Shown here: positions 15,796 to 37,434 of the stretch, piece after piece
How the letters are laid out: each line of letters starts with the position of its first letter
Position numbering within the stretch: the first letter of the stretch is position 1
DNA from: Candidatus Omnitrophota bacterium
Lineage (GTDB): Bacteria; Omnitrophota; Gorgyraeia; Gygaellales; Profunditerraquicolaceae
Direction of reading: 5' to 3'
NCBI GenBank assembly: GCA_003598135.1
Contig: QZKA01000004.1
Coordinates: 1 to 56,000, forward strand
Length of the DNA: 56,000 nucleotides
The notes under the pieces: model-generated
Told to the model about the DNA's origin: nothing
The model's database searches: none
Seen by the model: the letters and a program-made list of their open reading frames with translations, nothing else
Program-made: the position numbers and the translations under genes

Positions 15796-15798
15796 ACG

Positions 15799-16890
15799 AT
15801 GCTTTACCATTTACTGTATCCTCTAGAGAGCGTAATTTCATTTTTCAATATCTTCAAGTACATTACGTTCCGTGCTGCTATGGCGACGGTCACTGCGTTT
15901 TTTATCAGTATCGTCCTGGGGCCGTTGGTCATCCGTCTGCTCAGGCGTTTTCACATCGGACAGAACGTACGCAAGGAAGACGACAGCCGGCAGCTCTACG
16001 AACTTCATAGCAAAAAACAGGGGACCCCTACCATGGGAGGGGTGCTTATCCTGTTGGCCATAACTCTTTCTACGCTGCTGTGGGCAGACCTTCATAACCG
16101 CTACGTCATTCTGGCGCTCATGGGTACACTCTACCTTGGAGTAGCCGGTTTTCTCGACGATTACCTTAAGTATATACGAAAATGCTCAAAAGGTCTCACC
16201 GCATCCACAAAGATCATCAGCCAGGTGCTATTGGGCCTTATCCTCGGCGCAATACTCTTCCTTGATCCTGAATACAGTACGCAGGTGGATGTCCCGTTTC
16301 TCAAAAATGTTTCGCTCAACCTAGGTATTTTTTATATACTGTTTGTCATCCTGGTGATTGCGGGTTCTTCGAATGCGGTGAACCTTACTGATGGGCTCGA
16401 TGGGCTCGCAGTCGGTATCGTGGTGATGGTTGCCATTGCGTTCAGCGTCATTAGCTACGTATCGGGGAACATAAAATTTAGCCAGTATCTTTTTATACCG
16501 TATATTCCCAGGAGCGGAGAGTTGGCTGTCTTCTGTGGCAGCATCTTGGGTGCGGGATTGGGGTTTTTGTGGTTTAATTGCTATCCTGCGTTGATATTTA
16601 TGGGGGACGTGGGTTCTTTATCGCTGGGAGGCGCACTGGGGATAGTCGCAATTCTGATCAAGAAGGAGCTTTTGCTCCTGCTGGTGGGGGGGATTTTTGT
16701 GCTTGAGGCCCTTTCAGTGATACTTCAGGTTGCGTCGTTTAAACTTACCAAGAAACGTATTTTTAAAATAGCACCATTGCATCATCATTTTCAATTCCAG
16801 GGTTGGCAGGAGAACCAGGTCATCGTGAGATTCTGGATAATCGCCAGCCTCCTGGCCCTCCTGACGATAATTACCTTAAAGATACGCTAA
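15799..16890 (+). CDS. mraY: Phospho-MurNAc-pentapeptide transferase
   Basis: KxGTPTMGG, NAVNLTDGLDGL, FMGDVGS, APLHHHF. Confidence 0.97.
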   Translation: MLYHLLYPLESVISFFNIFKYITFRAAMATVTAFFISIVLGPLVIRLLRRFHIGQNVRKEDDSRQLYELHSKKQGTPTMGGVLILLAITLSTLLWADLHNRYVILALMGTLYLGVAGFLDDYLKYIRKCSKGLTASTKIISQVLLGLILGAILFLDPEYSTQVDVPFLKNVSLNLGIFYILFVILVIAGSSNAVNLTDGLDGLAVGIVVMVAIAFSVISYVSGNIKFSQYLFIPYIPRSGELAVFCGSILGAGLGFLWFNCYPALIFMGDVGSLSLGGALGIVAILIKKELLLLLVGGIFVLEALSVILQVASFKLTKKRIFKIAPLHHHFQFQGWQENQVIVRFWIIASLLALLTIITLKIR

Positions 16891-16956
16891 GGGTAGCCAA
16901 TGCGAAGCTGTCGGAAAGACTTATAATTCAAACACGTTAAGACTGCCCGTTTTTTT

Positions 16957-18240
16957 ATGAAAAACACTGAATATTTTAAAGGAAAAAAAATAACCGTTGT
17001 AGGCCTTGCGCGTTCAGGCAGCGCGTGTGCTGCGCTTCTGTCTTCGCTTGGCGCAGAGGTATATGTTACCGAACTGCAGGACAATGAAGTTACGCGAAGA
17101 AAAGCCTCGGAACTGATTGCCAGGGGTATTCAGGTGGAGCTGGGCCTTCACAGTGAAGGTTTTATAGCGCATAAAGATATGGTGGTGCTTTCCCCGGGCG
17201 TTGAGAATACCGCCCTGCCTGTGGTCTGGGCAGATCAATTTGGTGTTCCCATTGTGAGTGAAATCGAGATCGGCTGGATGGTCTGTCCTGCGCGGATTAT
17301 TGCGGTGACCGGCTCAAATGGCAAGACTACGGTCACTACTTTGATCGGGCAAGTCATTGAGGCAGCTGGAAAAAAGGCTTTAGTGTGCGGGAATATCGGC
17401 ACGCCTTTCACTTCGGTCGTCGCTGCCATGGTGCCAGAGGATTACGTATCTCTTGAGGTGAGCTCTTTTCAACTGGAACGCATACGCACCTTTAGGCCCT
17501 TTATTGCCTGTGTGCTTAATTTTACACGCAACCACCTGGACAGGTACCGTTCTATGGAGGAGTATGTGCAGGCAAAGAAACGCATCGCGATAAATCAGGG
17601 AAAAGGGGATTCCCTGGTATTAAATTATAATGATGAAACAGCCAGGGGCCTGGCAAAAGAGACAAAGGCAGAGGTGATATATTTTTATGAAGGGCAAAAG
17701 CTTAACCCTAACCAGGCAGCAGTCATGGCGGTGGGGTCGATACTGGGCATACGTAAAGATACAATGGAGGAGGTTTTTAAGGGTTTCAAGGGCCTCTCTC
17801 ACCGCATGGAATATGTTGCCCAGATAGCCAATGTTACCTTTGTCAATGATTCCAAGGCGACTACTGCCGATTCGACCCTTTGGGCCTTGAAGAATATACA
17901 GGGCAGGGTAATCCTGATTGCCGGCGGAAAAGACAAAGGGGTTGATTACCGACTTATTCTTGGCGTGGCAAAAGATAAAGTCAAAGAGCTTATTTTGATT
18001 GGCGAGGCTGCGGCAAAAATCGAAACTGCCCTGCGCAATGCCTTCCCCATACAAAAGGCAACAACCCTACAGGAGGCGGTAGAGAAGGCTTATCGTGATG
18101 CAGAGGCAGGAGATTATGTATTGCTTTCTCCGATGTGCTCAAGCTTTGATATGTTTTTAAATTATGAAGAACGGGGAGAGGTATTCAGGGAAGCAGTGAA
18201 AAAATTACTGTCAGCCAACCGGGGGGCGGCCGCTCACTAA
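16957..18240 (+). CDS. murD: UDP-MurNAc-L-Ala:D-Glu ligase
   Basis: GLARSG, TGSNGKTT, EVSSFQLE, NDSKAT, LLSPMCSSFD. Confidence 0.96.
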   Translation: MKNTEYFKGKKITVVGLARSGSACAALLSSLGAEVYVTELQDNEVTRRKASELIARGIQVELGLHSEGFIAHKDMVVLSPGVENTALPVVWADQFGVPIVSEIEIGWMVCPARIIAVTGSNGKTTVTTLIGQVIEAAGKKALVCGNIGTPFTSVVAAMVPEDYVSLEVSSFQLERIRTFRPFIACVLNFTRNHLDRYRSMEEYVQAKKRIAINQGKGDSLVLNYNDETARGLAKETKAEVIYFYEGQKLNPNQAAVMAVGSILGIRKDTMEEVFKGFKGLSHRMEYVAQIANVTFVNDSKATTADSTLWALKNIQGRVILIAGGKDKGVDYRLILGVAKDKVKELILIGEAAAKIETALRNAFPIQKATTLQEAVEKAYRDAEAGDYVLLSPMCSSFDMFLNYEERGEVFREAVKKLLSANRGAAAH

Positions 18241-19331
18241 TGCGTACAGTCCGCATAAAATTATTTATCACAACCGTTGTCCTTATCTGTATTGGTATTG
18301 TGATGATTTACAGCGCCTCTAGTATTTACGCCGCAGAGCGTTATAAAGACGGTGCCTTTTTTTTGAAAAGGCACCTTGTTTTTCTTGTGATAGGTGCGGC
18401 ATTGAGTATGCTTGTTATGAAACTAGACTACATGGTTTTGGGAAGGTTTGCCAAGCCCCTGTTATTATTTTCTTTTTTTCTGCTGGCTCTCGTATTGGTG
18501 CCGGGGATAGGCAGGGAGGTTGCCGGCGCACAACGTTGGTTCAGGTTCAAATTTTTTAGTTTCCAGCCGTCGGAATTGGCAAACCTGGCAATGATTATCT
18601 ACATCGCTGATTTTGTCACACGCAAAACAGAATACATCCGTGATTCGTTGCGGGGGTTTCTGCCCGTCCTTTTTGTGCTAGCTTTTTTGGTTGTGCTCAT
18701 ACTCTTGCAGCCTGATTTAGGGACTGCGTTAGCCATAAGCGCAGTAACTTTTCTTATGCTCTATGTCAGCGGGGTACGGACGCGGTATCTTGCGGGGATA
18801 ATCCTGACATGCCTGCCCGTACTTTTTGTCCTTATATTCAGCGTGCCTTACAGAAGGATGAGGATACTTGCTTTTCTTAATCCCTGGGCAGACCCGCGCA
18901 AGAGTGGTTTTCAGATTATACAATCGCAGCTTGCCCTTGGTTCCGGGGGGCTCTTAGGTGTCGGCCTCGGCCATTCACTGCAGAAGTTGTTTTATCTACC
19001 TGCTGCCCACACAGATTTTATTTTTTCGATCATAGGAGAGGAACTCGGCCTTGTAGGGACGCTGTTAGTAATTTTGCTGTTTATTTTTTTTATACGCCAG
19101 GGGATTAAGATCGTGCAAAGCGCGCAAAATAAATTCGGGTACCTGCTGGCGTTGGGATTACTTTCTATGATTTTACTTAAGGCTGCGGTCAATATCGGAG
19201 TCTCAAGCGGGATACTGCCTACCAAAGGATTGCCTCTGCCTTTTATAAGCTATGGAGGGTCTTCTTTGTTGTTCGATATGGTCAGTGTCGGGCTCCTTTT
19301 GAATATCGGCCGCTCAGGAGAGAGCCCATGA
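18240..19331 (+). CDS. ftsW: SEDS peptidoglycan polymerase FtsW
   Basis: FQPSE, QPDLGT, HTDFIFSIIGEELG, PTKGLPLPFISYGGSS. Confidence 0.95.
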   Translation: MRTVRIKLFITTVVLICIGIVMIYSASSIYAAERYKDGAFFLKRHLVFLVIGAALSMLVMKLDYMVLGRFAKPLLLFSFFLLALVLVPGIGREVAGAQRWFRFKFFSFQPSELANLAMIIYIADFVTRKTEYIRDSLRGFLPVLFVLAFLVVLILLQPDLGTALAISAVTFLMLYVSGVRTRYLAGIILTCLPVLFVLIFSVPYRRMRILAFLNPWADPRKSGFQIIQSQLALGSGGLLGVGLGHSLQKLFYLPAAHTDFIFSIIGEELGLVGTLLVILLFIFFIRQGIKIVQSAQNKFGYLLALGLLSMILLKAAVNIGVSSGILPTKGLPLPFISYGGSSLLFDMVSVGLLLNIGRSGESP

Positions 19332-20416
19332 AGATCTTGATTTTTACCGGCTCTAGCGGCGGCCATATGTTTCCCGCATTCGGCTTTCTCGATGCGCTGC
19401 AGGCAAGGTATCCATTGATAGAGACACTCCTTGTGCTGCCTAAGAAAAGCCTTGGGGAATGGGCCAAAAAGCGAAACTATCCCTACAAGGTTATTGAGGT
19501 AAGCTCTTTCGGGCTGGCGCAGGGAATACGCAATGTGAAGGCGTTCTTGCAGCTGTGCATCAGTTTCCTAAAAGTCATTTTCCTCTTTTTTGCATTCCGT
19601 CCTGCTGCCGTTGTCGGTTTCGGCGGACTAAGTACTGTCCCGGCAATTATGCTGGCGCATTGCCTCGGGATAAAGACATTGATACATGAGCAGAATGTGT
19701 TGCCGGGTCGCGCGAATGGATTTTTAGCGCCTTTTGCCGACGCAATTGCAGTTTCTTTTAAGGAAACCAGCCGATACATGGCGCGTTACGAAAAAAAAAT
19801 TGCCCTGACCGGCCTCCCTTTGCGAAAAGAGCTTACGAGGATCGAAAAGAAAAAGGCGCTGGCATTTTTCGGGCTGGATGATTCCTTTGTCACCATATTG
19901 GTTTTAGGGGGCAGCCAGGGCAGCCATCGTGTCAACATGGCGTTTTTGCAGGCGGTCTCCAGTCTTGTGCGCAAAGACGGTATTCAGGTGATCCATGTCT
20001 CGGGACCGCTTGACCATGCCGTATTGAAGGAGGCCTATGGCAAAGAAGGCATTCCTGCGGGGATTTTCGATTTTCTTGAAAAAATGCAGTTTGCCCTGAG
20101 CGCATGCGATATGGTCGTTTCTCGGGCAGGGGCCAGCACAATCGCAGAACTGATACGTTATGAACTGCCGGCTATACTTATTCCTTATCCCTTTGCGCGC
20201 AAGCACCAGGCTGAGAATGCAAAACACCTTCAGGAAATCGGCGCTGCCTTGTGCATAGAGGAGACAGCATCGCTGGCGAGCGAACTCAAGGATTGTATTG
20301 CTTCACTCGCCAATGATAAAGAACGGTTAATGCGGATGCGTTATGCCTACAGAAAAACAGCGTATCGCGACGGCGGTAATTTATTATCCGAAGCAGTGCT
20401 TTCTTTGTGCCCATGA
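19328..20416 (+). CDS. murG: Lipid II synthase MurG
   Basis: SGGHMFP, HEQN, GGSQGS, SRAGAST, HQAENA. Confidence 0.95.
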   Translation: MKILIFTGSSGGHMFPAFGFLDALQARYPLIETLLVLPKKSLGEWAKKRNYPYKVIEVSSFGLAQGIRNVKAFLQLCISFLKVIFLFFAFRPAAVVGFGGLSTVPAIMLAHCLGIKTLIHEQNVLPGRANGFLAPFADAIAVSFKETSRYMARYEKKIALTGLPLRKELTRIEKKKALAFFGLDDSFVTILVLGGSQGSHRVNMAFLQAVSSLVRKDGIQVIHVSGPLDHAVLKEAYGKEGIPAGIFDFLEKMQFALSACDMVVSRAGASTIAELIRYELPAILIPYPFARKHQAENAKHLQEIGAALCIEETASLASELKDCIASLANDKERLMRMRYAYRKTAYRDGGNLLSEAVLSLCP

Positions 20417-21183
20417 AGAAGATCATGTTTGCGCTGCTCTGCAGCATTGTGCCTGTGGCGGTAAGTGCCGCCCCAAAATGGAACACCGTAAAGAGCACGC
20501 ATTTTATCATTTATTATGCGAAAGCCGAGGATGCGTTTGTGCGTTCCGTCGTTGACTACGCAGAGAAATATTATGAAAAAATTGCTGACAGCCTCGGTTT
20601 TAGGCGGTATAATTTCTGGCTTTGGGACAACCGTGCCAAGATTTATATCCATGAGAACGCTCTAGAATACCAGAAAGAGACAGGGCAACCCAGCTGGTCT
20701 TTAGGTTCGGCTTCTCCCAAAGAGAAGATCATCCATACCTTTTTGCGCGAGGAGGGCTTTCTTGATTCGATTCTTCCGCATGAGCTGGGGCATATCATAT
20801 TCAGGGAATTCGTGGGTTTCGACAACCCGGCTATTCCCTTGTGGTTCGAAGAAGGAGTGGCGTCTTATCAGGAGGCCTCAAAACTAGCCATCGCCAAAGA
20901 GGTGGTGCGGCAGGCGCTCAAAGACGGCAGCTTTCTGAATATAGAAGGCCTTGTAAGGTTCGATGGCAAAAATATTAAAGACGAAAAAGTGGTGAATGTG
21001 TTCTATGCCGAATCGATAAGTATAGTGAATTACCTGATTAAGAAATTCGGCAACGACCGTTTTGTGCTTTTTTGTCAATACCTAAGGGATAAGAAGAATT
21101 TCGAGCGGGCATTGGCTTCCAGTTACCCCATCGCGAATATAAAAGAATTGGAACGCGGCTGGATCGAGGATATCAAGAAATGA
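20413..21183 (+). CDS. Secreted peptidase MA-like zinc metalloprotease
   Basis: Signal peptide; HELGH plus downstream PLWFEEGVASY (gluzincin pattern); 4-nt overlaps with murG and murC. Confidence 0.8.
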   Translation: MKKIMFALLCSIVPVAVSAAPKWNTVKSTHFIIYYAKAEDAFVRSVVDYAEKYYEKIADSLGFRRYNFWLWDNRAKIYIHENALEYQKETGQPSWSLGSASPKEKIIHTFLREEGFLDSILPHELGHIIFREFVGFDNPAIPLWFEEGVASYQEASKLAIAKEVVRQALKDGSFLNIEGLVRFDGKNIKDEKVVNVFYAESISIVNYLIKKFGNDRFVLFCQYLRDKKNFERALASSYPIANIKELERGWIEDIKK

Positions 21184-22565
21184 GCACCCATTACCATCTG
21201 ATTGGCATCGGAGGAATCGGGATGAGCGGTATTGCCAGGCTTCTATTCTGTGGCCGATGCAACGTTACCGGTTCAGACGCCAAACAAAGCAAGATTACCG
21301 AGGAGCTCAATGCCCTTGGGATCAAGGTGTATATAGGTCATGAGGCTTCATATGTCCGTGGTGCCGATTACGTGGTGTATTCGTCCGCGATAAAGGCGGA
21401 TAATCCCGAGATCGAGGAAGCGCGCAAAAGGCGGATCCCGTTATTGAAGAGGGCAGAGGCACTGGCGCAGCTTATGGCGGATAAGAGGGTAGTGACCGTA
21501 ACCGGAAGCCACGGCAAGACTACTACTACGTCTATGATCGCCTACCTTATGCTTGAGGCAGGTTTGTTTCCGACGATTGCAGTCGGCGGTATCTTAAAGA
21601 ATATCGATACAAACGCCTGCCCTGGCAAGGGTGATTTTTTTGTGGCTGAGGCGGATGAATCAGATGGTTCTTTTCTTTTTTACAGGCCGCGCTATTCGAT
21701 AATTACCAACATAGATTACGAGCATTTAGATTTTTACGGAAACTTTGAAAATGAATTAGCGGCATTCAGGGAGTTCATTGAGCGCACCGAAGAAGAAGGG
21801 TGTCTTATATGCGGTGGCGATGATAAGCACCTGAAGAAGCTAGTAGAGAATTCCCGACGCCAGCATATTTTTTTTGGCCTCAACGAAAAAACAGGCATAC
21901 ATGCCCGCAATATCAGTATTACCGGCCTTTCTTCGGAATTTGATTGTTTCTTGAACGATACCCTCATTGGGCACTTTAGACTTTCCTTGGGCGGAGCGCA
22001 CAATATCTCTAACGCGCTCAGCGTTATTGCCCTGGGAATGGAATTAAAAATAGATATCGGTACGATACAGAAGGCGTTGTTCAATTACCAGGGTTCAGGC
22101 AGGCGGCTCGAGGTAAAGTTCTACGAAGACAATATGCGCCTGATAGACGATTACGCCCACCATCCCACAGAAATCAAAGCGACCCTTGAGGCAGTGGCGC
22201 ATTTGAACGCCAAGAGAAAGATAGTTATTTTTCAGCCCCACCGTTATTCGCGCACAAAGCTGTTACTTGAGTTGTTTGGAAGGTGTTTTGCTGCTGCGGA
22301 TTATTTGATTATTACCGATATCTATGCGGCCAGCGAGACGCCGATAGAAGGCATAAGCGGTAAGAAGGTCTATGAAACAATAAAAGAATTTGAGCCTGCC
22401 AAAGAAGCGTATTTTTTAAAGAAAGAAGAGATTGCCCGGCACGTTCTGAAAATAGCAAGGGCAGGAGACGTTATTGTTACGCTCGGCGCAGGAGATATTT
22501 CTAAGGTGTCTGATGAACTGGTACAAGGGCTTAGGGCAAAGCTGCAAGTGCCGCGAACCGCTTAA
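21180..22565 (+). CDS. murC: UDP-MurNAc:L-Ala ligase
   Basis: GIGGIGMSG, GSHGKTTTT, EADESDGSF, DDYAHHPTE, FQPHRYSRT. Confidence 0.97.
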   Translation: MSTHYHLIGIGGIGMSGIARLLFCGRCNVTGSDAKQSKITEELNALGIKVYIGHEASYVRGADYVVYSSAIKADNPEIEEARKRRIPLLKRAEALAQLMADKRVVTVTGSHGKTTTTSMIAYLMLEAGLFPTIAVGGILKNIDTNACPGKGDFFVAEADESDGSFLFYRPRYSIITNIDYEHLDFYGNFENELAAFREFIERTEEEGCLICGGDDKHLKKLVENSRRQHIFFGLNEKTGIHARNISITGLSSEFDCFLNDTLIGHFRLSLGGAHNISNALSVIALGMELKIDIGTIQKALFNYQGSGRRLEVKFYEDNMRLIDDYAHHPTEIKATLEAVAHLNAKRKIVIFQPHRYSRTKLLLELFGRCFAAADYLIITDIYAASETPIEGISGKKVYETIKEFEPAKEAYFLKKEEIARHVLKIARAGDVIVTLGAGDISKVSDELVQGLRAKLQVPRTA

Positions 22566-23394
22566 ACGGCATACTACACTTAAGATTGGCGGTCCTGCGC
22601 GTTTTTTCATTGAGCCGCGCGATAGGGATCAGCTGCAGGAGTTGCTGCGCCTGCTTCGCCGCAATAAAATTTCTTTTCACGTATTAGGTATGGGCAGCAA
22701 TGTCCTTGTACGTGACAGGGGCTTTAACGGCGCGGTGGTGCGTTTACATGCACCGGGTTTTAAAAAAATCACTTTCGGCAGCAATTATGTGATCGCAGGC
22801 TCAGGCGTATCCCTGGTCCGTTTGTTGCTTGGTTGTTATCAAGAAGGTTTTTCCGGCCTTGAATTTCTTACGGGGATACCCGGCACAACAGGGGGGGCGC
22901 TGGTGATGAATGCCGGGATAAAAGAAAAGTGTATTGCCGACGCATTAGAATCGGTGACGGTAATGGATAAAAATGGTTCAATAAAGACCATTGTCAACAA
23001 AGATGCGCGTTTTTCCTACCGAAGTTCTTGTCTTAAAAAGTTTGTGGTGCTTGACGGACGCTTCAGGGTGCGCAGGAGGCCGCGCCTGCTGATCAAAAAG
23101 AGGATGGATGAACTGCGCGCATGGCGCCATAGGAACCAGGATTATTCTTTTCCTTCGGCAGGATGCGTTTTCAAGAATCCGGTCAATGATTCTGCGGGCC
23201 GGCTCATAGATGCATGCGGACTCAAGGGCGTAATAATAGGCGGGGCTGCAGTTTCTTTGCTGCACGCCAATTTTATCGTCAACCGGGGCAAGGCCTCTGC
23301 GGCAGATGTCTTAAAATTAATGTTATTGATGAAAACACAGGTAAAAAGGCGGTTCAGTATTACCTTAACGCCTGAGATCGAAATATGGAGATAA
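22513..23394 (+). CDS. murB: UDP-N-acetylenolpyruvoylglucosamine reductase
   Basis: HTTLKIGG, GSNVL, GIPGTTGGALVMNAG, SAGCVFKNP, HANFIVN; start trimmed to ATG 22513. Confidence 0.95.
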   Translation: MNWYKGLGQSCKCREPLKRHTTLKIGGPARFFIEPRDRDQLQELLRLLRRNKISFHVLGMGSNVLVRDRGFNGAVVRLHAPGFKKITFGSNYVIAGSGVSLVRLLLGCYQEGFSGLEFLTGIPGTTGGALVMNAGIKEKCIADALESVTVMDKNGSIKTIVNKDARFSYRSSCLKKFVVLDGRFRVRRRPRLLIKKRMDELRAWRHRNQDYSFPSAGCVFKNPVNDSAGRLIDACGLKGVIIGGAAVSLLHANFIVNRGKASAADVLKLMLLMKTQVKRRFSITLTPEIEIWR

Positions 23395-24362
23395 GAGGCG
23401 CACAACGCACAGCGCACAACGCACAGCGCCATAATTTCGGCAGGATTGGCGTCTTGATGGGCGGACCTTCCGCTGAAAGGGAGATATCGCTTAAATCAGG
23501 CAAGGCAGTGCATGCCGCACTTAAAGACTTGGGGCTCGACGCGGTAGGTATTGATATAGAGACGGCCGACGAGAAAAAAGCCCTTGCGTTATTGCGCTCC
23601 CAAAATATTTCCTGCGCGTTTATTGCGCTACACGGCTGTTTCGGCGAAGACGGGACAATACAGAAGATCCTTGAGAAACTTAAAATTCCCTATACCGGTT
23701 CCGGGGTTTCTGCAAGTATGTGCGCCATGGACAAGGTCAAATCGCGGCAGATATTTCAAAGTTGCGGTTTGCATGTACCGCGGTATGAGGTATTTAAGAA
23801 GGACGTGGTGATGCAGGGCAGGGGCGCGGTCCACAGCAGCCTTCTTGTGCCCTTGGTGGTGAAGCCTGCCTCCTGCGGCTCAAGCATCGGCCTTTCTATT
23901 ATTAAAGACGAGATACTGCTAGAAAAAGCCCTGCAGGATGGGTTTGCGTTTGACGAAACGGTGATTGTCGAAGAATACATTAGAGGCCGTGAGCTCACCG
24001 TCGGGGTTTTGAATGAAACAGCGCTGCCGGTCATTGAGATAGTGCCCAAGAAGGTTTTTTTCGATTACGAAGCAAAATACCAGGCGGGCATGACGGATTA
24101 TATTGTGCCTGCCGAACTCGATGAAGGTATTGCTTCCCGAGTGCGCAAGGATGCGCTTTCAGCACACCAGTCCCTGGGGTGTTTCGGCTGTTCACGCGCG
24201 GACATTATCTTAAGATGCGACAATACGCCTTTTATCCTTGAAATAAACACGATCCCTGGTTTTACATCGACAAGTCTTTTACCTAAAGCAGCGAAGTCCA
24301 TAGGTATTGAATTCGGTCAGCTTTGCCTTGAGTTGTTGAGGTTGGCATATGAAAAGAAATAA
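23385..24362 (+). CDS. ddl: D-alanine--D-alanine ligase
   Basis: GGPSAEREISL, LHGxxGEDG, GSSIG, DYEAKY, EINTIPG. Confidence 0.96.
   Translation: MEIRGAQRTAHNAQRHNFGRIGVLMGGPSAEREISLKSGKAVHAALKDLGLDAVGIDIETADEKKALALLRSQNISCAFIALHGCFGEDGTIQKILEKLKIPYTGSGVSASMCAMDKVKSRQIFQSCGLHVPRYEVFKKDVVMQGRGAVHSSLLVPLVVKPASCGSSIGLSIIKDEILLEKALQDGFAFDETVIVEEYIRGRELTVGVLNETALPVIEIVPKKVFFDYEAKYQAGMTDYIVPAELDEGIASRVRKDALSAHQSLGCFGCSRADIILRCDNTPFILEINTIPGFTSTSLLPKAAKSIGIEFGQLCLELLRLAYEKK
23398..23429 (+). repeat. Heptamer tandem repeat (GCGCACA/ACGCACA) inside the ddl 5' end
   Basis: GCGCACAACGCACA x2 + GCGC, read as AQRTAHNAQR. Confidence 0.8.
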
Positions 24363-25089
24363 GCCCAGAGAGTTTTTTTTATTTTTTCCGGCAGCGGTTT
24401 TACTCGCTGGTTCTTTTTTTTTAGCCCGGTTCGTTTTTTCTGGGCTTACCGCCTCAGGGAGCTTTACAGTTACTGATATCCTTGCCAAAGAAGACAACGC
24501 TGCCCAGTTTGAGTATTTAAAGGGCCGTAGCATTTTTGGCATTGACATTTCCCGGGAATCAGCGTATCTTGCTAAGGTATACCCGCAGTATCGTACAATA
24601 GAAATCTATAAGATGTTCCCCGGGACGCTGTTCATTGATTTTCTCCGGCGCACGCCTATTGCGGCGATAAAGCTGCCACAGGGTTATTACTGTGTTGACG
24701 AAAACCTCATTGTCTTTGAGGCGCCGCTGCAGTTAGAAAAAGAAAATCTCCCCGTTATTACCGGCCTTGAGAAAAGGATGTCTGCGTTGGCGGTTGGCCA
24801 TAGGTATGAATCTTTGGAATTGAAGTTGGCAGTGGCTATTATTCAGGAGATTAAAAACAGCGAGTCCTTAAGGAAAATTACCATAAAAGAAATAGACGTT
24901 TCGCAATCCGGGTATGTTTCTCTTCTGTCTCCGGACGTCCCGGAAGTAAGGTTTAGCCGTGGTTTTATCGGAGACAAAATCAAGATTTTTGCCGGATTGT
25001 GCAATCAAACCACAGGGGAACTTCAGTCCATCGACTACATTGACTTGAGGTTTCAGGAGCCCGTACTCAAATATAAAAATGCCCGCTAG
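24349..25089 (+). CDS. ftsQ: Cell division protein FtsQ/DivIB (divergent)
   Basis: N-terminal TM, POTRA-like region, C-terminal YIDLRF; lies between ddl and ftsA. Confidence 0.8.
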   Translation: MKRNKPREFFLFFPAAVLLAGSFFLARFVFSGLTASGSFTVTDILAKEDNAAQFEYLKGRSIFGIDISRESAYLAKVYPQYRTIEIYKMFPGTLFIDFLRRTPIAAIKLPQGYYCVDENLIVFEAPLQLEKENLPVITGLEKRMSALAVGHRYESLELKLAVAIIQEIKNSESLRKITIKEIDVSQSGYVSLLSPDVPEVRFSRGFIGDKIKIFAGLCNQTTGELQSIDYIDLRFQEPVLKYKNAR

Positions 25090-26335
25090 TTACATCTGTG
25101 CTCTGGATATCGGTTCAAGTAAAATCGCTGCGTGCCTGGCAAGGGTAAAAGGCCGGCAGGTCATTGATTTATTCCTTGAAGCCGCTCCCTCCAAGGGCGT
25201 ACGCAGGGGCTCTATCATTGATTCGATAGAATTCAGCGAATCAGTCGCGCAGATACTTAAGAAGTTACGGCAGAAGTCAGGGGTCCGTATTAAATATGTG
25301 CATGTCGGATTCACAGGAGAAAATATCATCACCAAGCACAGCCGTTCCATTATCCCTCTTGCGGAGAGAGGCAATAAAGTTATCACGTCCTATGATATCC
25401 AGCGCGCGCACCAGCAGGCCCTCGTACTTGGTTCCAATGTAGAGGAGGAGATTATACATCATTTGCCGTTCAGTTATGCAATCGATTCTAACGGCAATGT
25501 CCCTAATCCCGTCGGTCTTTATAGCCATCGGTTAGAGGCCGATGTGTACTTGGTATGCACAAAACTTTCCTACGTGCAGACCCTCGTGCATGCCGTTAAC
25601 CAGGCTGGTTATGAAATGAAGGACGTTTCCTTTAACGGCCTCTTGGAAAGCAAGGTTGTATTGGGTAAAAATGAACAAAAAGGCCTTTACGTACTTTGTG
25701 ACGTAGGCAGCGATATTACGGAATTGCTCATATTCAATGACGGCGTGCTCAGGCATATCGAGCTTTTTCCGTTCGGCGGTAATGACCTGACCGCTGGATT
25801 GGCAGAGGAACTTAAGATCCCGTTTGAATTGGCAGAGGCCATTAAAAAGTCCCACGGGGTCATCGGTGATACAAGCCTCATGAATCCCGAAAAAGAAATC
25901 TTATTCAAAAAAGAGGACAGGTATGAGCCTATCAAAGAGAAGGTGGTCTGTGAAATCATTACCGCCAAGGCTAAATTGTTTTGCGCAAAGATATATGACA
26001 CCTTACACGTACAGGTCCCTCTATATGAGATTAAGAAACTTTTCGTTACCGGAAGGACCATACTGCAAGACGGCTTTCTTGAACAGGTGGAGAATATTCT
26101 CGGAGTGCAGGTGGCGTTCGGAAAGATCACCGATGCAAAGTTTCTTACCTGGTGCGCTACCCATGAGGCCCTCTCAGGGCAGAAGTACCTCACTTACCTT
26201 GCCTGCCTGGGGTTGTTAAAACAGATTTTACAAGGCGATTCTTTGCCGCAAAGCAAGGCACAGGTCCAGTCTGGGCGCAATCCTTTTTTAAAATCACTGC
26301 ATAAAATCAAAGAGTTATACCAGGAATACTTTTAA
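25079..26335 (+). CDS. ftsA: Cell division protein FtsA (divergent motifs)
   Basis: ALDIGSSKI, GVRRG, 1C domain, GGNDLT, C-terminal amphipathic helix. Confidence 0.9.
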   Translation: MPASYICALDIGSSKIAACLARVKGRQVIDLFLEAAPSKGVRRGSIIDSIEFSESVAQILKKLRQKSGVRIKYVHVGFTGENIITKHSRSIIPLAERGNKVITSYDIQRAHQQALVLGSNVEEEIIHHLPFSYAIDSNGNVPNPVGLYSHRLEADVYLVCTKLSYVQTLVHAVNQAGYEMKDVSFNGLLESKVVLGKNEQKGLYVLCDVGSDITELLIFNDGVLRHIELFPFGGNDLTAGLAEELKIPFELAEAIKKSHGVIGDTSLMNPEKEILFKKEDRYEPIKEKVVCEIITAKAKLFCAKIYDTLHVQVPLYEIKKLFVTGRTILQDGFLEQVENILGVQVAFGKITDAKFLTWCATHEALSGQKYLTYLACLGLLKQILQGDSLPQSKAQVQSGRNPFLKSLHKIKELYQEYF

Positions 26336-26363
26336 TTGAACCTCCATTTTTGTGTTGTATAAT
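26336..26363 (+). promoter_or_regulatory. Putative sigma70 promoter for yggS
   Basis: TTGAAC (26336-26341) - 16 bp - TATAAT (26358-26363). Confidence 0.5.
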
Positions 26364-26380
26364 AATATGTTATCCAAAAT

Positions 26381-27073
26381 ATGGTAAGCGAAAATATTGC
26401 AAAGGTCAAGCAGCGTATTGCCTCGGCGTGTGCAAGGGCAGGTCGAAAACCCGGCGAAATAACCGTTATTGCGGTAAGTAAATACAGGCTCCTGCGGGAG
26501 GTCGAGGAAGTGGCGGAGTCCGGCATTTGCGATATCGGAGAGAACAGGCTTCAAGAAGCGTCGCTCAAACACGCCGCAATTTCCCGCAATTTCGGAAATG
26601 TCAGATGGCACATGGTTGGCCATCTTCAGACCAATAAGGCTAAGCAAGCGGTCAAGATCTTCGACCTGATCCATTCCGTGGATAGCGCTCACCTTGCGCA
26701 GGAAATCGAGATACAGGCATCAAAGATTAATAAGATCCAAAAGATCCTAGTCCAAGTAAATATTTCAAAGGAAAAGACTAAGTCCGGTTTTACGCTCCAA
26801 GACGTAAAAAAGTCTATTAGAATTATAGCCGGATTTAAACACATAGTCGTTAAAGGGCTTATGACAATAGCGCCTATTGTGCAAGCTCCTGAGCAGGCGC
26901 GTCCCTATTTCCGCCTCCTCAGAGAATTATTAAATGAAATCAACTCAATACTCAACACTCAACACTCAATACGGGAACTCTCTATGGGCATGTCTGATGA
27001 CTTTGAAGTAGCTGTTGAAGAGGGCGCAACAATGCTTAGAATCGGTAGGGCGATTTTTGAAGGTTCAGGTTAA
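26381..27073 (+). CDS. yggS: PLP homeostasis protein YggS
   Basis: AVSK, GENRLQE, WHMVGHLQTNK, GLMT, LSMGMSDDF, RIGRAIF. Confidence 0.96.
   Translation: MVSENIAKVKQRIASACARAGRKPGEITVIAVSKYRLLREVEEVAESGICDIGENRLQEASLKHAAISRNFGNVRWHMVGHLQTNKAKQAVKIFDLIHSVDSAHLAQEIEIQASKINKIQKILVQVNISKEKTKSGFTLQDVKKSIRIIAGFKHIVVKGLMTIAPIVQAPEQARPYFRLLRELLNEINSILNTQHSIRELSMGMSDDFEVAVEEGATMLRIGRAIFEGSG
26943..26972 (+). repeat. Heptamer tandem repeat (ACTCAAY x4) inside yggS
   Basis: ACTCAAT ACTCAAC ACTCAAC ACTCAAT AC in the loop preceding LSMGMS. Confidence 0.8.
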
Positions 27074-27386
27074 GACTTAGGTTAAGTAAGGCTAAGGTCA
27101 AGGAGTAAGGTAGCTGGGTTAATGACAAATGCACAAAATCAAAATGACAAATAAAATCTCAAACTCCAAGCATCCTGCCTACCGGCAGGCAGGCAAATCA
27201 CAAATAAGCTCCAATTACCAATGACCAAATCACCAAAAGGGGTGAATTTTGTTCATTGGTCATTTGGGCATTGGGATTTATTTGGGATTTGACATTTGGT
27301 ATTTGTCATTTATTTGTCACTGGTGCTTTGGTATTTGTCATTCACGCACTACACCGTTCGCAATACGCGATACACAATACGATACG
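27062..27386. repeat. Composite intergenic repeat element, copy B
   Basis: TAAGGY tract; AATGACAAAT (27121-27130) / ATTTGTCATT (27333-27342); palindrome at 27174-27193; CAATAC-type tract; collinear with copy A. Confidence 0.85.
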
Positions 27387-27396
27387 AGGTGTGAGT

Positions 27397-28224
27397 TTGC
27401 AGAAGATAGGAATCATCGGATATGGGAACATGGGGGCTGCGATAGGCGAACGGATAAAATCCGTCTACCGCGTGCATGTGTTCGATAAAGACAAAGACAA
27501 AACAAGCGGTCTTACTGATATATACACTTCTGATACTGTTTTGGATGTGCTCAAAAACGTTGATGCCGTGTTCTTGGCGGTAAAACCCCAGGATTTTGAT
27601 TCGGTGCTTGAAGAGATCAGCAATACGGCAGAGGCATTGTTAGTTATTTCTATCGCGGCAGGCATTACCACGCGTTATATAGAGCGCTACCTAAAGAAGG
27701 CCCGGGTCATCAGGGCTATGCCTAATATCGGGGCTAAGATTGCCCAAGCGCAGACCTGCGTCTGCAGAGGTGTTTCTGCTAGTGATAGTGATTTATCATT
27801 CGCCGAAGATTTATTCAAGATGATCGGAAAAACCTGGAGGATTGGCGAGGATATGATGGATGCTGCTACAGCAATTTCCGGCAGCGGCCCAGCCTATATT
27901 TTCTACGACATCGAAAAAGAAAAAATAGAGCCGAACCGCATCACGCAGCAGCAGAAACACAAATACATGGAGTTCCTTAAAGATGCTGCTGTGGGTTTAG
28001 GTTTTAGCGCTGCCGTAGCCGGAGACCTTGCTTCAAGCATTACCCAGACAAGTTTGAACCTTATGCTGATGACGCCTTTTTTGCCTGCCCAGTTGAGAAG
28101 GCAGGTAACTTCTAAGGGTGGTACCACTGAGGCGGCAATACATGTGTTGATGAGCGGCGGGTCGTGGTTAGAGGCGGCAAGGGCCGCTGAAGAGCGCGCA
28201 ACGCAATTATCAAGAAAGGATTAG
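27397..28224 (+). CDS. proC: Pyrroline-5-carboxylate reductase
   Basis: GYGNMG, AVKPQ, ISIAAG, RAMPN, SGSGPAY, VTSKGGTT; start is TTG 27397 (GAGGTG RBS) or GTG 27391. Confidence 0.93.
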   Translation: MQKIGIIGYGNMGAAIGERIKSVYRVHVFDKDKDKTSGLTDIYTSDTVLDVLKNVDAVFLAVKPQDFDSVLEEISNTAEALLVISIAAGITTRYIERYLKKARVIRAMPNIGAKIAQAQTCVCRGVSASDSDLSFAEDLFKMIGKTWRIGEDMMDAATAISGSGPAYIFYDIEKEKIEPNRITQQQKHKYMEFLKDAAVGLGFSAAVAGDLASSITQTSLNLMLMTPFLPAQLRRQVTSKGGTTEAAIHVLMSGGSWLEAARAAEERATQLSRKD

Positions 28225-28229
28225 GCGAT

Positions 28230-29087
28230 ATGGGGCGCATAGGCATTATCGGAGGCAGCGGTCTTTACGATATCGAGGGTTTAAAAGGCGCAAAAAAAAT
28301 TAATGTTACCACGCCGTTCGGGAGGCCTTCAGATGCGTTTGTGATGGGGAGCCTTGAAGGAAGCGAGATAGTATTTCTTCCCAGGCACGGAGTAGGCCAC
28401 CGGATTTCGCCCAGTGAAATCAACTATCGCGCAAACATCTATGGCATGAAAAAACTTGGCGTAGAGCGGATTATTTCAGTGAGTGCCTGCGGTAGCCTTA
28501 AGGAGGAAATAAGGCCTCTTGATTTCGTAATCGTAGACCAGTTTGTCGACCGCACTAACCAGGCACGCCAGATGTCGTTTTTTAAAAACGGAATCGTTGC
28601 CCATCTTGTATTTGCGCACCCTGTATGTGGGGAATTGTCGGCCCTTTTGTATGAGGGCGCGAAACGGCTGCATATTTCTGCGCACAAAGGGGGCACGTAT
28701 ATCAACATGGAGGGCCCTGCCTTTTCGACACTTGCAGAATCCAATCTCTACCGCAGCTGGAACATTGATATTATCGGCATGACCAATATAGCAGAAGCAA
28801 AACTGGCCCGCGAAGCAGAGATATGTTATGCTACACTTGCTGCGGTCACCGACTACGATTGTTGGCATCCTCAGCATGAGAGCGTGACGATTGATATGGT
28901 GATCGAGAGCCTGGGGAAGAATATAAATAATGCCAAGATGATGATTAGGGAGGTAATAAAGAATATCCCTTCGCAGAGACAGTGCGCGTGCAAGGACGCG
29001 CTTAAATATGCGATCGTCACCGACAGGAAGTCTATTCCTGCAAAGGTGAAAAAGGACTTAGGGATTATTATTGGGAAATATTTGTAG
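28230..29087 (+). CDS. mtnP: S-methyl-5'-thioadenosine phosphorylase
   Basis: GIIGGSGLY, RHGxGH, EGPAFST, GMT, TDYDCW. Confidence 0.93.
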   Translation: MGRIGIIGGSGLYDIEGLKGAKKINVTTPFGRPSDAFVMGSLEGSEIVFLPRHGVGHRISPSEINYRANIYGMKKLGVERIISVSACGSLKEEIRPLDFVIVDQFVDRTNQARQMSFFKNGIVAHLVFAHPVCGELSALLYEGAKRLHISAHKGGTYINMEGPAFSTLAESNLYRSWNIDIIGMTNIAEAKLAREAEICYATLAAVTDYDCWHPQHESVTIDMVIESLGKNINNAKMMIREVIKNIPSQRQCACKDALKYAIVTDRKSIPAKVKKDLGIIIGKYL

Positions 29088-29396: not shown

Positions 29397-32243
29397 ATGG
29401 ATAAAATCAACTACAAGGCTACGTTAAATCTACCCAAGACGGAATTTCCGATGAAGGCTGATTTGCCGAAGCGGGAGCCGTATGTGTTGCAATCGTGGCA
29501 GAGCATGGAGATAAGTAAGCTTATTTCCCACAAGCGCAAAGGTGCGCAAAAATACATATTGCACGACGGCCCTCCTTACGCAAACGGCGATATTCATATC
29601 GGTCATGCGCTGAACAAAATTCTAAAAGACATCATCGTAAAATACAAAAGCATGCGCGGGCTTGATGCGCCCTTTGTGCCCGGTTGGGATTGTCACGGCT
29701 TGCCGGTGGAGCATCAGCTTTTTAAGGAATTGGGGATTACCAAATATCAGATCAATCAGGTGGAGTTCAGAAAGAAGGCTTACGCCTACGCTTCAAAGTT
29801 TGTCGAGATTCAAAAAGAACAATTCGTAAGGCTCGGGATAATCGCTGACTGGGAGCATCCTTACCTTACCTTGCAGCCGGAATATGAAGAAGCAATTATC
29901 CGCTCCTTCGCCGTACTGGTAAAGAAAGGCTATGTCTACCGCGGCCTTAAACCGGTAAACTGGTGTTACCGGTGCGAAACAGCGCTGGCCGAAGCGGAAG
30001 TAGAATACGAGGACCATGCGTCGCCGTCTGTATTCGTGAAGTTTGAAATTGAACAGGAAGGCCAGTTCCTGCCACAGAGTTTCCTCGTGATTTGGACAAC
30101 CACTCCTTGGACGCTCGTCGCTAATGTCGCAGTTGCCGCACACCCCGACTTTACCTATTCCTACGTAAAGACCGACAAGGGAAACCTCTTGGTATATAAA
30201 GAGATGATCTCCCGCCTCATGGAACTCTTCGGGATAAAAACATACGAACTCATAAGGGAGTATAAGGGCAGAGAGCTCGAAAATATTTCTTACAAACACC
30301 CTCTTGCCGGCAGGAAAGGCAGGGTGGTGCTGGCTAATTACGTTTCAAAAGAAGAGGGCAGTGGCCTTGTGCATACCGCGCCCGGCCACGGCAGCGAGGA
30401 CTATTTTACGGGAGTCAAATATAAACTCGATATCATCATGCCGGTGGATTCCAAGGGAGTGTTTGACGCATCCGCAGGAGAATTTAATGGTTTGGATGTG
30501 TATAGCGCCAACACCAAGATTGTGGAAAAACTTAAGCTCCTCGGGCTTTTGCTATTTTCCGGTACGGTAAGGCATTCGTACCCTCATTGCTGGCGTTGCA
30601 AAAATCCCGTTATTTTCAGGGCGACAAAACAATGGTTTTTGAAGATCGATCACACTCAGGGAGCAGGGGAAAGTCCGACGCTACGTACGCAGCTGCTGGA
30701 AGCGATACATCAGGCAATTACCTGGATCCCGCCTTCGGGGAAGGAAAGGATTTCTTCGATGGTGGAATTGAGGCCTGACTGGTGTCTCTCGCGGCAAAGG
30801 TATTGGGGAGTACCGATACCGGCACTAGCGTGCAAGGATTGCAATGAAGAATTCCTCTTCCCCCAGGTCATCGAAGCGTTCGCTCGCCTTGCTTCAGAAG
30901 AAGGTTCTGATTGCTGGTTTAAGCGGCCATTGGCAGATTTTATGCCTTCTTTGTTGCAGTGCCCGCATTGCGGAAAAAGCGATTTTGCAAAGGGTGCGGA
31001 TATCCTTGATGTCTGGTTTGACTCCGGGGTAAGCCACCAGGCAGTGCTTAAAAAAAGAGGGGCACTGACCTTTCCTTGCGATTTGTACCTTGAAGGCTCC
31101 GACCAGCACAGGGGCTGGTTTCAGTCTTCGCTCATCCCCTCGATTTGTATTGATGGCATTGCGCCATTTAAAAACGTGCTCACCCACGGGTTTGTCGTCG
31201 ACGGAGAAGGCAGGAAGATGTCGAAGTCGCTGGGCAATGTAATCTCGCCTTTTGATATTATCAAGCAGTATGGGGCTGAGATAGTAAGGCTGTGGGTGGC
31301 CTCTAGCAATTACAGCGAGGATATACGTATCTCATCAGAAATTATCTCAAGGCTTGTAGAGGCGTATCGTAAGATCAGAAACAGCGCCCGTTTTATCCTG
31401 AGCAACCTCTATGATTATAACCCGGATAGCTCAGCGGTGCGCTATGCCGAACTGAGGAAAATAGACGTATGGATCCTGGATAAGCTTGAATCGATGTATA
31501 TACAGGTGACCGACGCCTACGAGCACTTTGAATTTTACAAGGCCTACAAAGGTATCTATGATTTTTGCAACGAGTCGCTCTCTATGTATTACCTTGATAT
31601 GGTCAAGGGCAGGCTCTATACCTATGCGTCGGATTCCCGCCCGAGAAGGGCGGTGCAGACTGCGCTCTATTGCGTGCTTAATACGCTTACTAGGGTTATG
31701 GCACCGATACTGGCGTTTACCGCCGAGGAAATATGGCAGCATATGCCCAAAGAAGATAAGGACGTGGCTTCGCAAAGCGTCTATCTTCTTGACTGGCCCG
31801 GCCAGGAAGAGCTTTTTCCAAAAGGCTTTACACAGGACAGTGCGAGGGCAAAGGAAGCAGATTTTGAGGTTATCCTTGGGTTAATACCTGAGGTGACAAA
31901 ACTTCTTGAAGAAAAGCGCGCTGCGGGCATGATAGGTAGTTCTTTTGACGCGAAAATAAATATATTGACAAACAGCCAAAATCGTTATAACTTTTTAGAA
32001 AGTTTACAGTATGAGCTTAATGAGGTATTTAAGGTCTCGCAGGTTGAAATTGTCCTCAAGGCAGACTTTGGAGAAGGGGTATTCAAGAGCGCGCGTTATT
32101 CCGATATCGCCATTGCGGCACTAAAAGCAGAAGGGGATAAATGCCCTCGCTGCTGGAATTATACAAATGAGTTGTTAACCAGCCAGGAATACGGCACGCT
32201 ATGTAAAAGGTGCGCACGAGCGATAAAGGGGGAAGATACGTGA
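29397..32243 (+). CDS. ileS: Isoleucine--tRNA ligase (type 1)
   Basis: HDGPPYANG, HIGH, WTTTPWT, GSDQHRGWF, KMSKS, C-terminal CPRC..CKRC. Confidence 0.98.
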   Translation: MDKINYKATLNLPKTEFPMKADLPKREPYVLQSWQSMEISKLISHKRKGAQKYILHDGPPYANGDIHIGHALNKILKDIIVKYKSMRGLDAPFVPGWDCHGLPVEHQLFKELGITKYQINQVEFRKKAYAYASKFVEIQKEQFVRLGIIADWEHPYLTLQPEYEEAIIRSFAVLVKKGYVYRGLKPVNWCYRCETALAEAEVEYEDHASPSVFVKFEIEQEGQFLPQSFLVIWTTTPWTLVANVAVAAHPDFTYSYVKTDKGNLLVYKEMISRLMELFGIKTYELIREYKGRELENISYKHPLAGRKGRVVLANYVSKEEGSGLVHTAPGHGSEDYFTGVKYKLDIIMPVDSKGVFDASAGEFNGLDVYSANTKIVEKLKLLGLLLFSGTVRHSYPHCWRCKNPVIFRATKQWFLKIDHTQGAGESPTLRTQLLEAIHQAITWIPPSGKERISSMVELRPDWCLSRQRYWGVPIPALACKDCNEEFLFPQVIEAFARLASEEGSDCWFKRPLADFMPSLLQCPHCGKSDFAKGADILDVWFDSGVSHQAVLKKRGALTFPCDLYLEGSDQHRGWFQSSLIPSICIDGIAPFKNVLTHGFVVDGEGRKMSKSLGNVISPFDIIKQYGAEIVRLWVASSNYSEDIRISSEIISRLVEAYRKIRNSARFILSNLYDYNPDSSAVRYAELRKIDVWILDKLESMYIQVTDAYEHFEFYKAYKGIYDFCNESLSMYYLDMVKGRLYTYASDSRPRRAVQTALYCVLNTLTRVMAPILAFTAEEIWQHMPKEDKDVASQSVYLLDWPGQEELFPKGFTQDSARAKEADFEVILGLIPEVTKLLEEKRAAGMIGSSFDAKINILTNSQNRYNFLESLQYELNEVFKVSQVEIVLKADFGEGVFKSARYSDIAIAALKAEGDKCPRCWNYTNELLTSQEYGTLCKRCARAIKGEDT

Positions 32244-34117: not shown

Positions 34118-34936
34118 ATGTCCAACAAGGGTAAAACTTCCGTTTTTATTTTGTTTCTTTTGATCATTATTTCTTTTTCTTTGGCAGGCGGGGCATTTTA
34201 TCTTATGCAGCAGGAAAAAACAAAAGCTGCTACGCTGGAAAAAGACATGGAGGCCCTTTCCTCAAAACAGAGGGTAGTCCAGGCAGAACTTGAGAGTGCA
34301 AAAAAGACCATCGTAGATTTTGAGTCAAAATTAAAAGCGTATGAACTGCAGATTGAAAATTTAACCGAAGACCTCGATATGGAAAAGACCGCGAAAGAAG
34401 AATCGCTCAAGAAAGTTTCGCAGCTTAAGATAGCGCTTGAGCTCCAGGAGAAACAGCGTTCCGCCCTCGAGGAGAAGGTTACTCAGGCCCAGGACGAGGT
34501 AAAGAAGTTCAAAGAGGAGTTGAAGGACCTTCAATTAAAGAAGGGCGAGCTTGAAGAGAAGCTTAGGGGCGTGCAGGCAAATGCCCCTTCAGCCGGCGAT
34601 GTGGAATTAGGCAAAATTGTAATCGGTCCGGAAGGTGAGGAGCTTGTAGGGTTTGACCAGGAGGTTCTCGCGCAACCGCGCGGCAATGTCCTTGAAGGAA
34701 AAGTGCTTACCCTCAACAAAGAATACGATTTTGTTGTCATTAACTTAGGAAGCAAGGACGGCGTAAAGATAAATAATGTATTTTCCGTCTATCGCGAGAA
34801 CGCCTATTTGGGTGACGTAAAAATAGACAAACTTCACGATTCCATGTCCGCCGCAACGTTTGTGGTAGATGCAAAGCATAAGGATTTGAAAAATCGTATC
34901 AGCGAGGGCGATAAGGTCGTATTAAAAACCAGATGA
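34118..34936 (+). CDS. Membrane-anchored coiled-coil protein with C-terminal beta domain
   Basis: N-terminal TM, about 120-aa heptad coiled coil, FVVINLGSKDG; strong RBS. Confidence 0.8.
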   Translation: MSNKGKTSVFILFLLIIISFSLAGGAFYLMQQEKTKAATLEKDMEALSSKQRVVQAELESAKKTIVDFESKLKAYELQIENLTEDLDMEKTAKEESLKKVSQLKIALELQEKQRSALEEKVTQAQDEVKKFKEELKDLQLKKGELEEKLRGVQANAPSAGDVELGKIVIGPEGEELVGFDQEVLAQPRGNVLEGKVLTLNKEYDFVVINLGSKDGVKINNVFSVYRENAYLGDVKIDKLHDSMSAATFVVDAKHKDLKNRISEGDKVVLKTR

Positions 34937-37417: not shown

Positions 37418-37434
37418 CGACTCGAAAATAAAAT

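Follow-up and report, generated by a model that had tools for sequence, protein, structure and literature searches.

Nearly all bacteria have FtsZ, and what the division machinery minimally needs can be seen from every lineage that divides in its absence. Here we describe a stretch of 56,000 nucleotides from a Candidatus Omnitrophota bacterium (positions 1 to 56,000 of contig QZKA01000004.1, our contig C5; hereafter the window), in which the cluster of division and cell wall genes (dcw) runs from mraZ to ftsA and is followed by yggS and proC where ftsZ would be expected. The draft assembly to which it belongs (GCA_003598135.1) holds 1,456,549 bases in 36 contigs and is 93.65% complete, with 0.27% contamination. 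The dcw cluster of E. coli (ddlB-ftsQ-ftsA-ftsZ-lpxC; NC_000913.3) shares its gene order between mraZ and ftsA with the window; the window differs in that ftsZ is missing, that a Peptidase_MA_2 gene stands between murG and murC, and that yggS-proC begins 45 bp after ftsA.

Among bacteria described as lacking FtsZ, Chlamydiota divide in a manner that depends on MreB/RodZ and on FtsK (PMC12283558). Both Chlamydiota and Planctomycetota are reported to be without FtsA (PMC12283558, PMC8178401), and Planctomycetota are also reported without FtsB, with some of their orders devoid of many peptidoglycan genes (PMC12283558). The genome studied here resembles Chlamydiota in having no FtsZ and in carrying peptidoglycan synthesis genes, MreB, RodZ and FtsK, but differs from them in an FtsA that is retained, conserved and under purifying selection. 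The combination typical of Chlamydia (neither FtsZ nor FtsA, with MreB, RodZ and FtsK present) is therefore not the one found, since FtsA is present. With Planctomycetota this genome shares the lack of FtsZ, whereas it does carry FtsA, FtsB and the complete set of mur genes. There is thus a hint that FtsZ was lost in Omnitrophota by a route different from that of Planctomycetota and Chlamydiota, which are reported to lack FtsA too.

The absence itself has been noted before. A legend in Pende et al. (2021, Nat Commun 12:3214; PMC8178401) lists Planctomycetes, Omnitrophica and Chlamydiae as phyla without FtsZ, and the five Omnitrophica rows of its supplementary table give FtsZ in one genome of five (OLB16), SepF in none and FtsA in four, when the order of the columns is inferred from the other phyla. 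This pattern, with FtsZ and SepF absent and FtsA retained, is also that of the present genome. What differs is the scale, as that study covers five genomes and leaves the case undiscussed, whereas our sample of 301 genomes has FtsZ in none and FtsA in 300. An initial annotation of the window had seen in it a possible independent loss of FtsZ with an undescribed or intermediate mode of division. The absence of FtsZ in Omnitrophota is real but already published, and is not new, and an intermediate mode is speculation.

Searches of the genome to which the window belongs covered the assembly except the final 471 bases of contig C5. Profile searches gave no match to PF00091 (Tubulin/FtsZ), and none at E<=1 to TIGR00065 (ftsZ) or PF12327 (FtsZ_C). 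PF13809 (Tubulin_2) had no match in any of the five genomes of a panel representing five families, namely this genome, the single-contig genomes G183 and G189, G031 (2 contigs) and G131 (4 contigs). In 14 named control genomes PF00091, TIGR00065 and PF12327 each match 13 or 14, and PF13809 matches 4. When E. coli FtsZ (from NC_000913.3) was used as a query, the best tblastn match in the genome had an E-value of 1.3, and the best phmmer --max match among 10,939 six-frame open reading frames (ORFs) had an E-value of 0.023; the control query, E. coli FtsA, finds the ftsA of the window at 1.9e-29. The best phmmer match, on contig C25, owes its score to a glycine-rich stretch in what its sequence suggests is a pyridoxal phosphate enzyme of the cysteine-synthase type. 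We also searched for the tubulin GTP-binding signature, in a loosened form, and for patterns of the FtsZ C-terminal peptide. The sole six-frame match to the loosened signature is the Walker-A loop of a 724-amino-acid ORF. These searches confirm, at the level of sequence, that ftsZ is missing from the whole 93.65%-complete assembly, so that the absence seen in the window extends beyond it.

One could argue that a tubulin-superfamily protein is present and has diverged so far that it escapes BLAST, the signature motif and the profiles of Pfam and NCBIfam, which are all sequence-based methods; some FtsZ proteins of the Planctomycetes-Verrucomicrobia-Chlamydiae (PVC) group are indeed described as very divergent (PMC12283558). 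We consider this very improbable. Four profiles, phmmer --max and the loose GGGTG-type signature all returned nothing, while the same FtsZ/tubulin models match even archaeal control genomes, and the partners ZapA, MinC, MinD, SepF and the extracellular domain of FtsX were likewise not found in the genomes of the panel. An FtsZ-like C-terminal peptide, which would be the candidate occupant of FtsA subdomain 2B, had no strict match in the genome and seven loose ones, of which the one examined (contig C17, 19037-19294) lies antisense to an ORF of 358 amino acids.

The absence extends far beyond this genome. Our sample of the phylum comprises 301 Omnitrophota genomes, drawn evenly over 206 genera, of which 248 are of high quality and two, G183 and G189, consist of a single contig; because genomes were sampled, absence is to be read throughout as not found among the sampled genomes. 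PF00091 was found in none of 41 relatives up to the level of order (0/20 of high quality), and in none of the 301 genomes across the phylum (0/248), G183 and G189 included. In the same 301 genomes, the FtsA profile TIGR01174 has a match at E<=0.001 in 300, including all 248 of high quality; the matches exceed the curated cut-off in 160 of the 301, and the weaker ones may include other actin-fold proteins. With the FtsZ family matched in none of the 301 genomes and FtsA in 300 of them, the absence of FtsZ is, on these profile counts, a trait of the phylum. A loss particular to this genome is thus not what the wider sample shows.

The junction at which ftsZ is missing can be followed closely. 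The gene ftsA (25079-26335, + strand) is separated from yggS (26381-27073, +) by a spacer of exactly 45 bp (26336-26380), the site where ftsZ normally comes next. Positions 26336-26363 of it resemble a promoter (TTGAAC-16-TATAAT, 10 of 12 matches). As this site covers most of the 45 bp, there is no room for a remnant of ftsZ, and the initial annotation was right to see neither gene nor remnant directly after ftsA. The order ddl-ftsQ-ftsA-yggS-proC-pnp-ileS is also found at loci L001, L002 and L003, whose FtsA proteins are 87%, 86% and 49% identical to that of the window, and at L005 (FtsA 44% identical), where the spacer between ftsA and yggS is longer. That spacer, L005:5255-5945, comprises 690 bp without a convincing ORF. 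The relatives of this FtsA in public genomes are Candidatus Omnitrophota, one of them being Candidatus Undivivens industriae.

Could ftsZ lie in an unassembled part of the draft genome, or could the ftsA-yggS junction have been misassembled? The genome is in 36 contigs and 93.65% complete, and the contigs of the one sequencing run found do not reach the junction, all of which speaks for such an explanation. Yet PF00091 is missing from all 301 genomes, the two single-contig and 248 high-quality ones among them, in 300 of which ftsA is matched, and just 471 bases of the assembly, the last of C5, escaped our search. Misassembly in the genome of the window is unlikely because the same junction recurs in four independent metagenome-assembled genomes (MAGs). 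Taken together, we regard an overlooked ftsZ of this kind as close to negligible in probability.

The surroundings of ftsA were compared in 20 further genomes from 19 families. In all 20 ftsA is found after ddl; ftsQ is detectable with the FtsQ protein of the window in 17, and yggS and/or proC lie downstream of ftsA in seven. At 12 of the 13 remaining loci 23 ORFs downstream of ftsA were scanned, none of them tubulin-like, and at the thirteenth, L022, there are zero same-strand ORFs of at least 90 amino acids downstream of ftsA. ORFs of the size of FtsZ (363-374 amino acids) do occur right after ftsA at L014, L023 and L026 and proved to encode GcvT, and a 457-amino-acid ORF in the same position at L006 encodes a PAS histidine kinase. 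In these three distant Omnitrophota genomes (L014:2792-5649, L023:2446-3546 and L026:2779-4275) gcvT thus stands directly after ftsA; among the ORFs scanned, gcvH comes next after gcvT at L014 and L026, and gcvP is found there too at L014.

Alongside FtsZ, the accessory proteins that usually bind it were not found. In the five panel genomes there is no match to ZapA, MinC_C or FtsX_ECD, none over the cut-off to SepF (one weak match, E 0.0048), and none over the cut-off to MinD, for which weaker matches below the cut-off exist. FtsK, DivIC/FtsB and RodZ_C, on the other hand, are found in five of five. The genome of the window has the order pnp-ftsK-rodZ-(radical SAM/TRAM enzyme)-pgsA-pgpA at locus L048 (G000:C21:11000-19000); the FtsK encoded there is full-length, with 4TM, alpha, motor and gamma domains, and the RodZ combines HTH_25 with RodZ_C. 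Of the divisome, the components in the membrane and periplasm are retained, namely FtsA, FtsK, FtsQ, an ORF in the position of ftsL, FtsB, FtsW and FtsI, and the elongasome is retained as well, with MreBCD, RodZ, PBP2 and RodA.

The FtsA of the window, a protein of 418 amino acids, scores 186.8 bits against TIGR01174, over the cut-off, and has the features of the family: an actin-like fold with an SHS2 (1C) insert, encoded after ftsQ. Sequence alignment to solved structures matched E. coli FtsA over residues 6-262 alone. An AlphaFold2 model, built from the same 26 Omnitrophota sequences that make up our FtsA alignment, has a predicted local distance difference test score (pLDDT) of 88.4. In Foldseek searches the model aligns with FtsA structures at template modelling (TM) scores of 0.70-0.86 over ~390 columns, better than with PilM or MreB, and its scores against the entry of Thermotoga maritima FtsA bound to an FtsZ peptide (4a2a_A) are 0.73/0.81. 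Subdomain 2B, in which the T. maritima protein (4a2a) holds the FtsZ tail, is represented in the model by two helices (234-245 and 249-259), by strands within 273-286 and by a further helix, 287-312. The family to which the FtsA of the window belongs is accordingly predicted to keep all four subdomains, 2B included.

The ratio of nonsynonymous to synonymous substitution rates (dN/dS) of ftsA against L001 is 0.08, a value indicating that the gene is under strong purifying selection. The EYF end of the protein, with Y417 and F418 as its last two residues, is invariant in all 26 sequences of the alignment. In the model a C-terminal helix (402-417) comes after a disordered linker, and the hydrophobic moment of residues 402-418 is 0.48, as against 0.22 for shuffled sequences, 1.5% of which reach 0.48. 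FtsA thus ends in a conserved amphipathic helix of the membrane-targeting type. On sequence and model together, the FtsA of the window looks functional.

We consider it likely, with good confidence, that these observations belong to one picture, in which FtsZ and its accessories are absent, the divisome components of membrane and periplasm are kept together with the elongasome, and FtsA would provide the scaffold. Judging from the genomic data, the divisome does without FtsZ and probably has FtsA as its scaffold at the membrane. According to this model, FtsA would sit on the membrane by means of its conserved C-terminal amphipathic helix and act there as a cytoplasmic scaffold. It would then recruit FtsK and FtsQLB, so that septal peptidoglycan synthesis by FtsWI is switched on, and the synthesis of septal wall by FtsWI would in turn drive constriction. 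MreB/RodZ may help to place or to start the septum, as reported for Chlamydiae. With more reservation, one may speculate that Omnitrophota represent a third, mechanistically distinct form of FtsZ-free division in walled bacteria, where polymers of membrane-bound FtsA (an 'A-ring') nucleate the divisome, and where the intact 2B in the family of the window has been kept for self-assembly or for a new partner and not for FtsZ; this further step is possible but rather doubtful.

A different explanation is that Omnitrophota divide as Chlamydiae do, by MreB/RodZ with FtsK, and that FtsA is ancillary or different in role. Some 10 kb downstream of ftsA there is a complete set of mreBCD, pbp2 and rodA, a full-length ftsK adjoins rodZ in all five panel genomes, and the nucleotide-binding motifs of FtsA are atypical and the protein is trimmed in some families (see below), all of which would suit such an arrangement. 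FtsA is nevertheless matched in 300 of 301 genomes, with strong purifying selection and a conserved membrane helix in evidence, whereas it is reported lost in Chlamydiae and Planctomycetes (PMC8178401). We also gave little weight to the adjacency of ftsK and rodZ as a sign of division of the Chlamydia type, for it may be ancestral. A pnp...ftsK...rodZ-pgsA neighbourhood also exists in Firmicutes. A Chlamydiae-like mode of division therefore seems to us unlikely, and the scaffold function of FtsA the better account.

A non-homologous polymer might also have taken the place of FtsZ, such as the one bactofilin or a coiled-coil protein specific to the lineage. The genome of the window has one bactofilin gene (G000:C14:24223-24516), and a single bactofilin is found in 17 of 21 relatives (11/11 of high quality); apart from it, the analysis found FtsA and MreB as the known cytoskeletal polymers. 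The coiled-coil protein, which is anchored in the membrane, is peculiar to Omnitrophota and is described at the end of this text; it is encoded between the dcw and mre clusters, and 88 of 101 genomes in the phylum gave a match to it. Such a replacement is nonetheless improbable, as the coiled-coil protein, with its N-terminal membrane helix, would by its inferred topology lie mostly outside the cytoplasm, and neither of the two proteins is linked to division. PspA/ESCRT-III, as an alternative constriction system, was rejected, with no match in any of the 21 relatives.

Several points weigh against a divisome scaffolded by FtsA, or against the absence on which it is built. The phosphate-2 loop of the FtsA of the window reads DVGSDIT, compared with DIGGGTM in E. 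coli, and its adenosine motif reads TGRT, compared with TGGA. Because both motifs are atypical, it is uncertain from the sequence whether this FtsA would polymerise in an ATP-dependent manner. Furthermore, the FtsA proteins of families f11 and f13 are short (353-386 amino acids) and lack ~60 residues of subdomain 2B. One of them (L015:4201-5259, - strand) has 353 amino acids and is without ~60 residues in 2B, and thirteen f11/f13 matches, in ORFs of 359-386 amino acids, end at positions 229-241 of the TIGR01174 model. This trimming is not common to the FtsA of the window; because of it, one may doubt that FtsA works by the same mechanism throughout the phylum. The scaffold mechanism is moreover one that we infer, all of the evidence for it being genomic. 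As for the absence, it was established with sequence profiles, and a tubulin-fold protein beyond the reach of hidden Markov models (HMMs) is possible; the genome itself is a 36-contig draft. The sole sequencing run found holds 11% of the sampled words, and its contigs cover 25349-25783, which falls short of 26336-26380, so that it is uninformative on the junction. Finally, a 2017 review (PMC5945725) states that FtsZ is present in Omnitrophica, and a paper of 2025 in iScience (PMC12283558) groups Omnitrophota with the phyla that conserve dcw genes.

As a separate observation on the nucleotide-binding motifs, the FtsA of the window and its closest five relatives in the alignment (L001 and L003-L006) share the forms D[VI]GSD[IN]T for phosphate-2 and [TSA]GR[TS] for the adenosine motif. 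The GG of the adenosine motif is retained by most other Omnitrophota families.

The disagreement in the literature can be traced to a single genome. Rivas-Marin et al. (2016; PMC5147048) found FtsZ in OLB16 alone and left two other Omnitrophica genomes open, and OLB16 is the sole FtsZ-positive 'Omnitrophica' in this and the other published survey (PMC8178401). In the NCBI taxonomy OLB16 (taxid 1617433) is now Candidatus Hinthialibacteria bacterium OLB16, of the phylum Candidatus Hinthialibacterota. The conflict over FtsZ in Omnitrophica is removed by this reassignment, since the claims of presence rest on OLB16, which now belongs to another phylum. In the accessible supplements of PMC12283558 neither 'Omnitrophota' nor 'Omnitrophica' occurs, and Seymour et al. 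(2023; PMC10066038) mention neither FtsZ nor FtsA nor the divisome in their main text.

What the present analysis adds is the scale (301 genomes, none with FtsZ and 300 with FtsA), the set of missing partners, and OLB16 as the explanation of the conflict in the PVC literature. Omnitrophota are the sole reported FtsZ-less phylum retaining FtsA together with FtsK, FtsQLB and FtsWI. Because they keep these proteins without FtsZ, they let one ask, as a natural test, if cytokinesis can be achieved with FtsA and the synthesis of septal wall.

The remaining genes of the cluster, all on the + strand, were identified with Pfam profiles on the listed ORFs. The cluster opens with mraZ (9521-9970; PF02381 MraZ, E 6.4e-38) and rsmH, or mraW (9970-10875; PF01795 Methyltransf_5, E 2.8e-102). 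These are followed by an ORF of 123 amino acids in the position of ftsL (10882-11253), which has an N-terminal hydrophobic segment, takes its name from its position and matches zero Pfam families even at E<=0.1. Next come ftsI, encoding a transpeptidase of the PBP3 type (11263-12993; PF00905, 8.5e-80, and PF03717, 1.3e-17), and murE, murF, mraY and murD (12842-18240), recognised by Mur ligase domains, by Glycos_transf_4 with MraY_sig1, and by MurD-like_N. Then follow ftsW (18240-19331; PF01098 FTSW_RODA_SPOVE, 9.7e-115) and murG (19328-20416; PF04101 and PF03033), and between murG and murC the Peptidase_MA_2 ORF, encoding a gluzincin-type protein of 258 amino acids (20407-21183; PF13485, 1.1e-14). 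The cluster continues with murC (21180-22565; Mur ligase domains), murB (22474-23394; MurB_C with FAD_binding_4), ddl (23385-24362; Dala_Dala_lig_C and _N) and ftsQ (24349-25089; PF03799 FtsQ_DivIB_C, 2.3e-08), and its last gene is ftsA (PF14450 and PF02491 SHS2). Downstream, yggS (PF01168, Ala_racemase_N) is followed by proC (27256-28224; PF14748 with PF03807), a phosphorylase gene of the PNP_UDP_1 family (28230-29087; PF01048) and ileS (29397-32243; PF00133, 3e-134). The elongasome genes mreB-mreC-mreD-pbp2-rodA occupy 36338-41495 (PF06723, 1.3e-148; PF04085; PF04093; PF00905 with PF03717; PF01098).

The canonical dcw order from mraZ to ftsA is thus found, ORF by ORF, apart from an ftsL assigned by position and the inserted peptidase ORF. 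The initial annotation had given this order, followed by yggS-proC, correctly. Its gene list nevertheless omitted the Peptidase_MA_2 ORF and named ftsL, which can be named by position alone, and it wrote 'murCB' for two genes that are both present but are separate ORFs in different frames. It had also seen no sepF, yggT or divIVA before ileS, in agreement with zero SepF, YggT and DivIVA Pfam matches from ftsA to ileS. What it described as kept, namely FtsA, FtsQ, FtsW and FtsI, the ORF at the place of ftsL and a full elongasome (MreBCD, PBP2 and RodA), is likewise present.

The coiled-coil protein mentioned above, of 272 amino acids, is encoded at 34118-34936 (+), between rluD and murA-mreBCD and hence between the dcw and mre clusters. 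Its model (pLDDT 85.7) shows an N-terminal membrane helix, a long helix up to residue 155, a disordered linker and a beta domain of 80 amino acids. The atlas clusters to which it belongs are made up exclusively of Omnitrophota and have no common Pfam family, and its C-terminal domain matches FlgT_C in 10 of 21 homologues, with a best E-value of 7e-6. In the seven genomes common to the hit tables of FtsA and of this protein, it is encoded ~9 kb downstream of ftsA.

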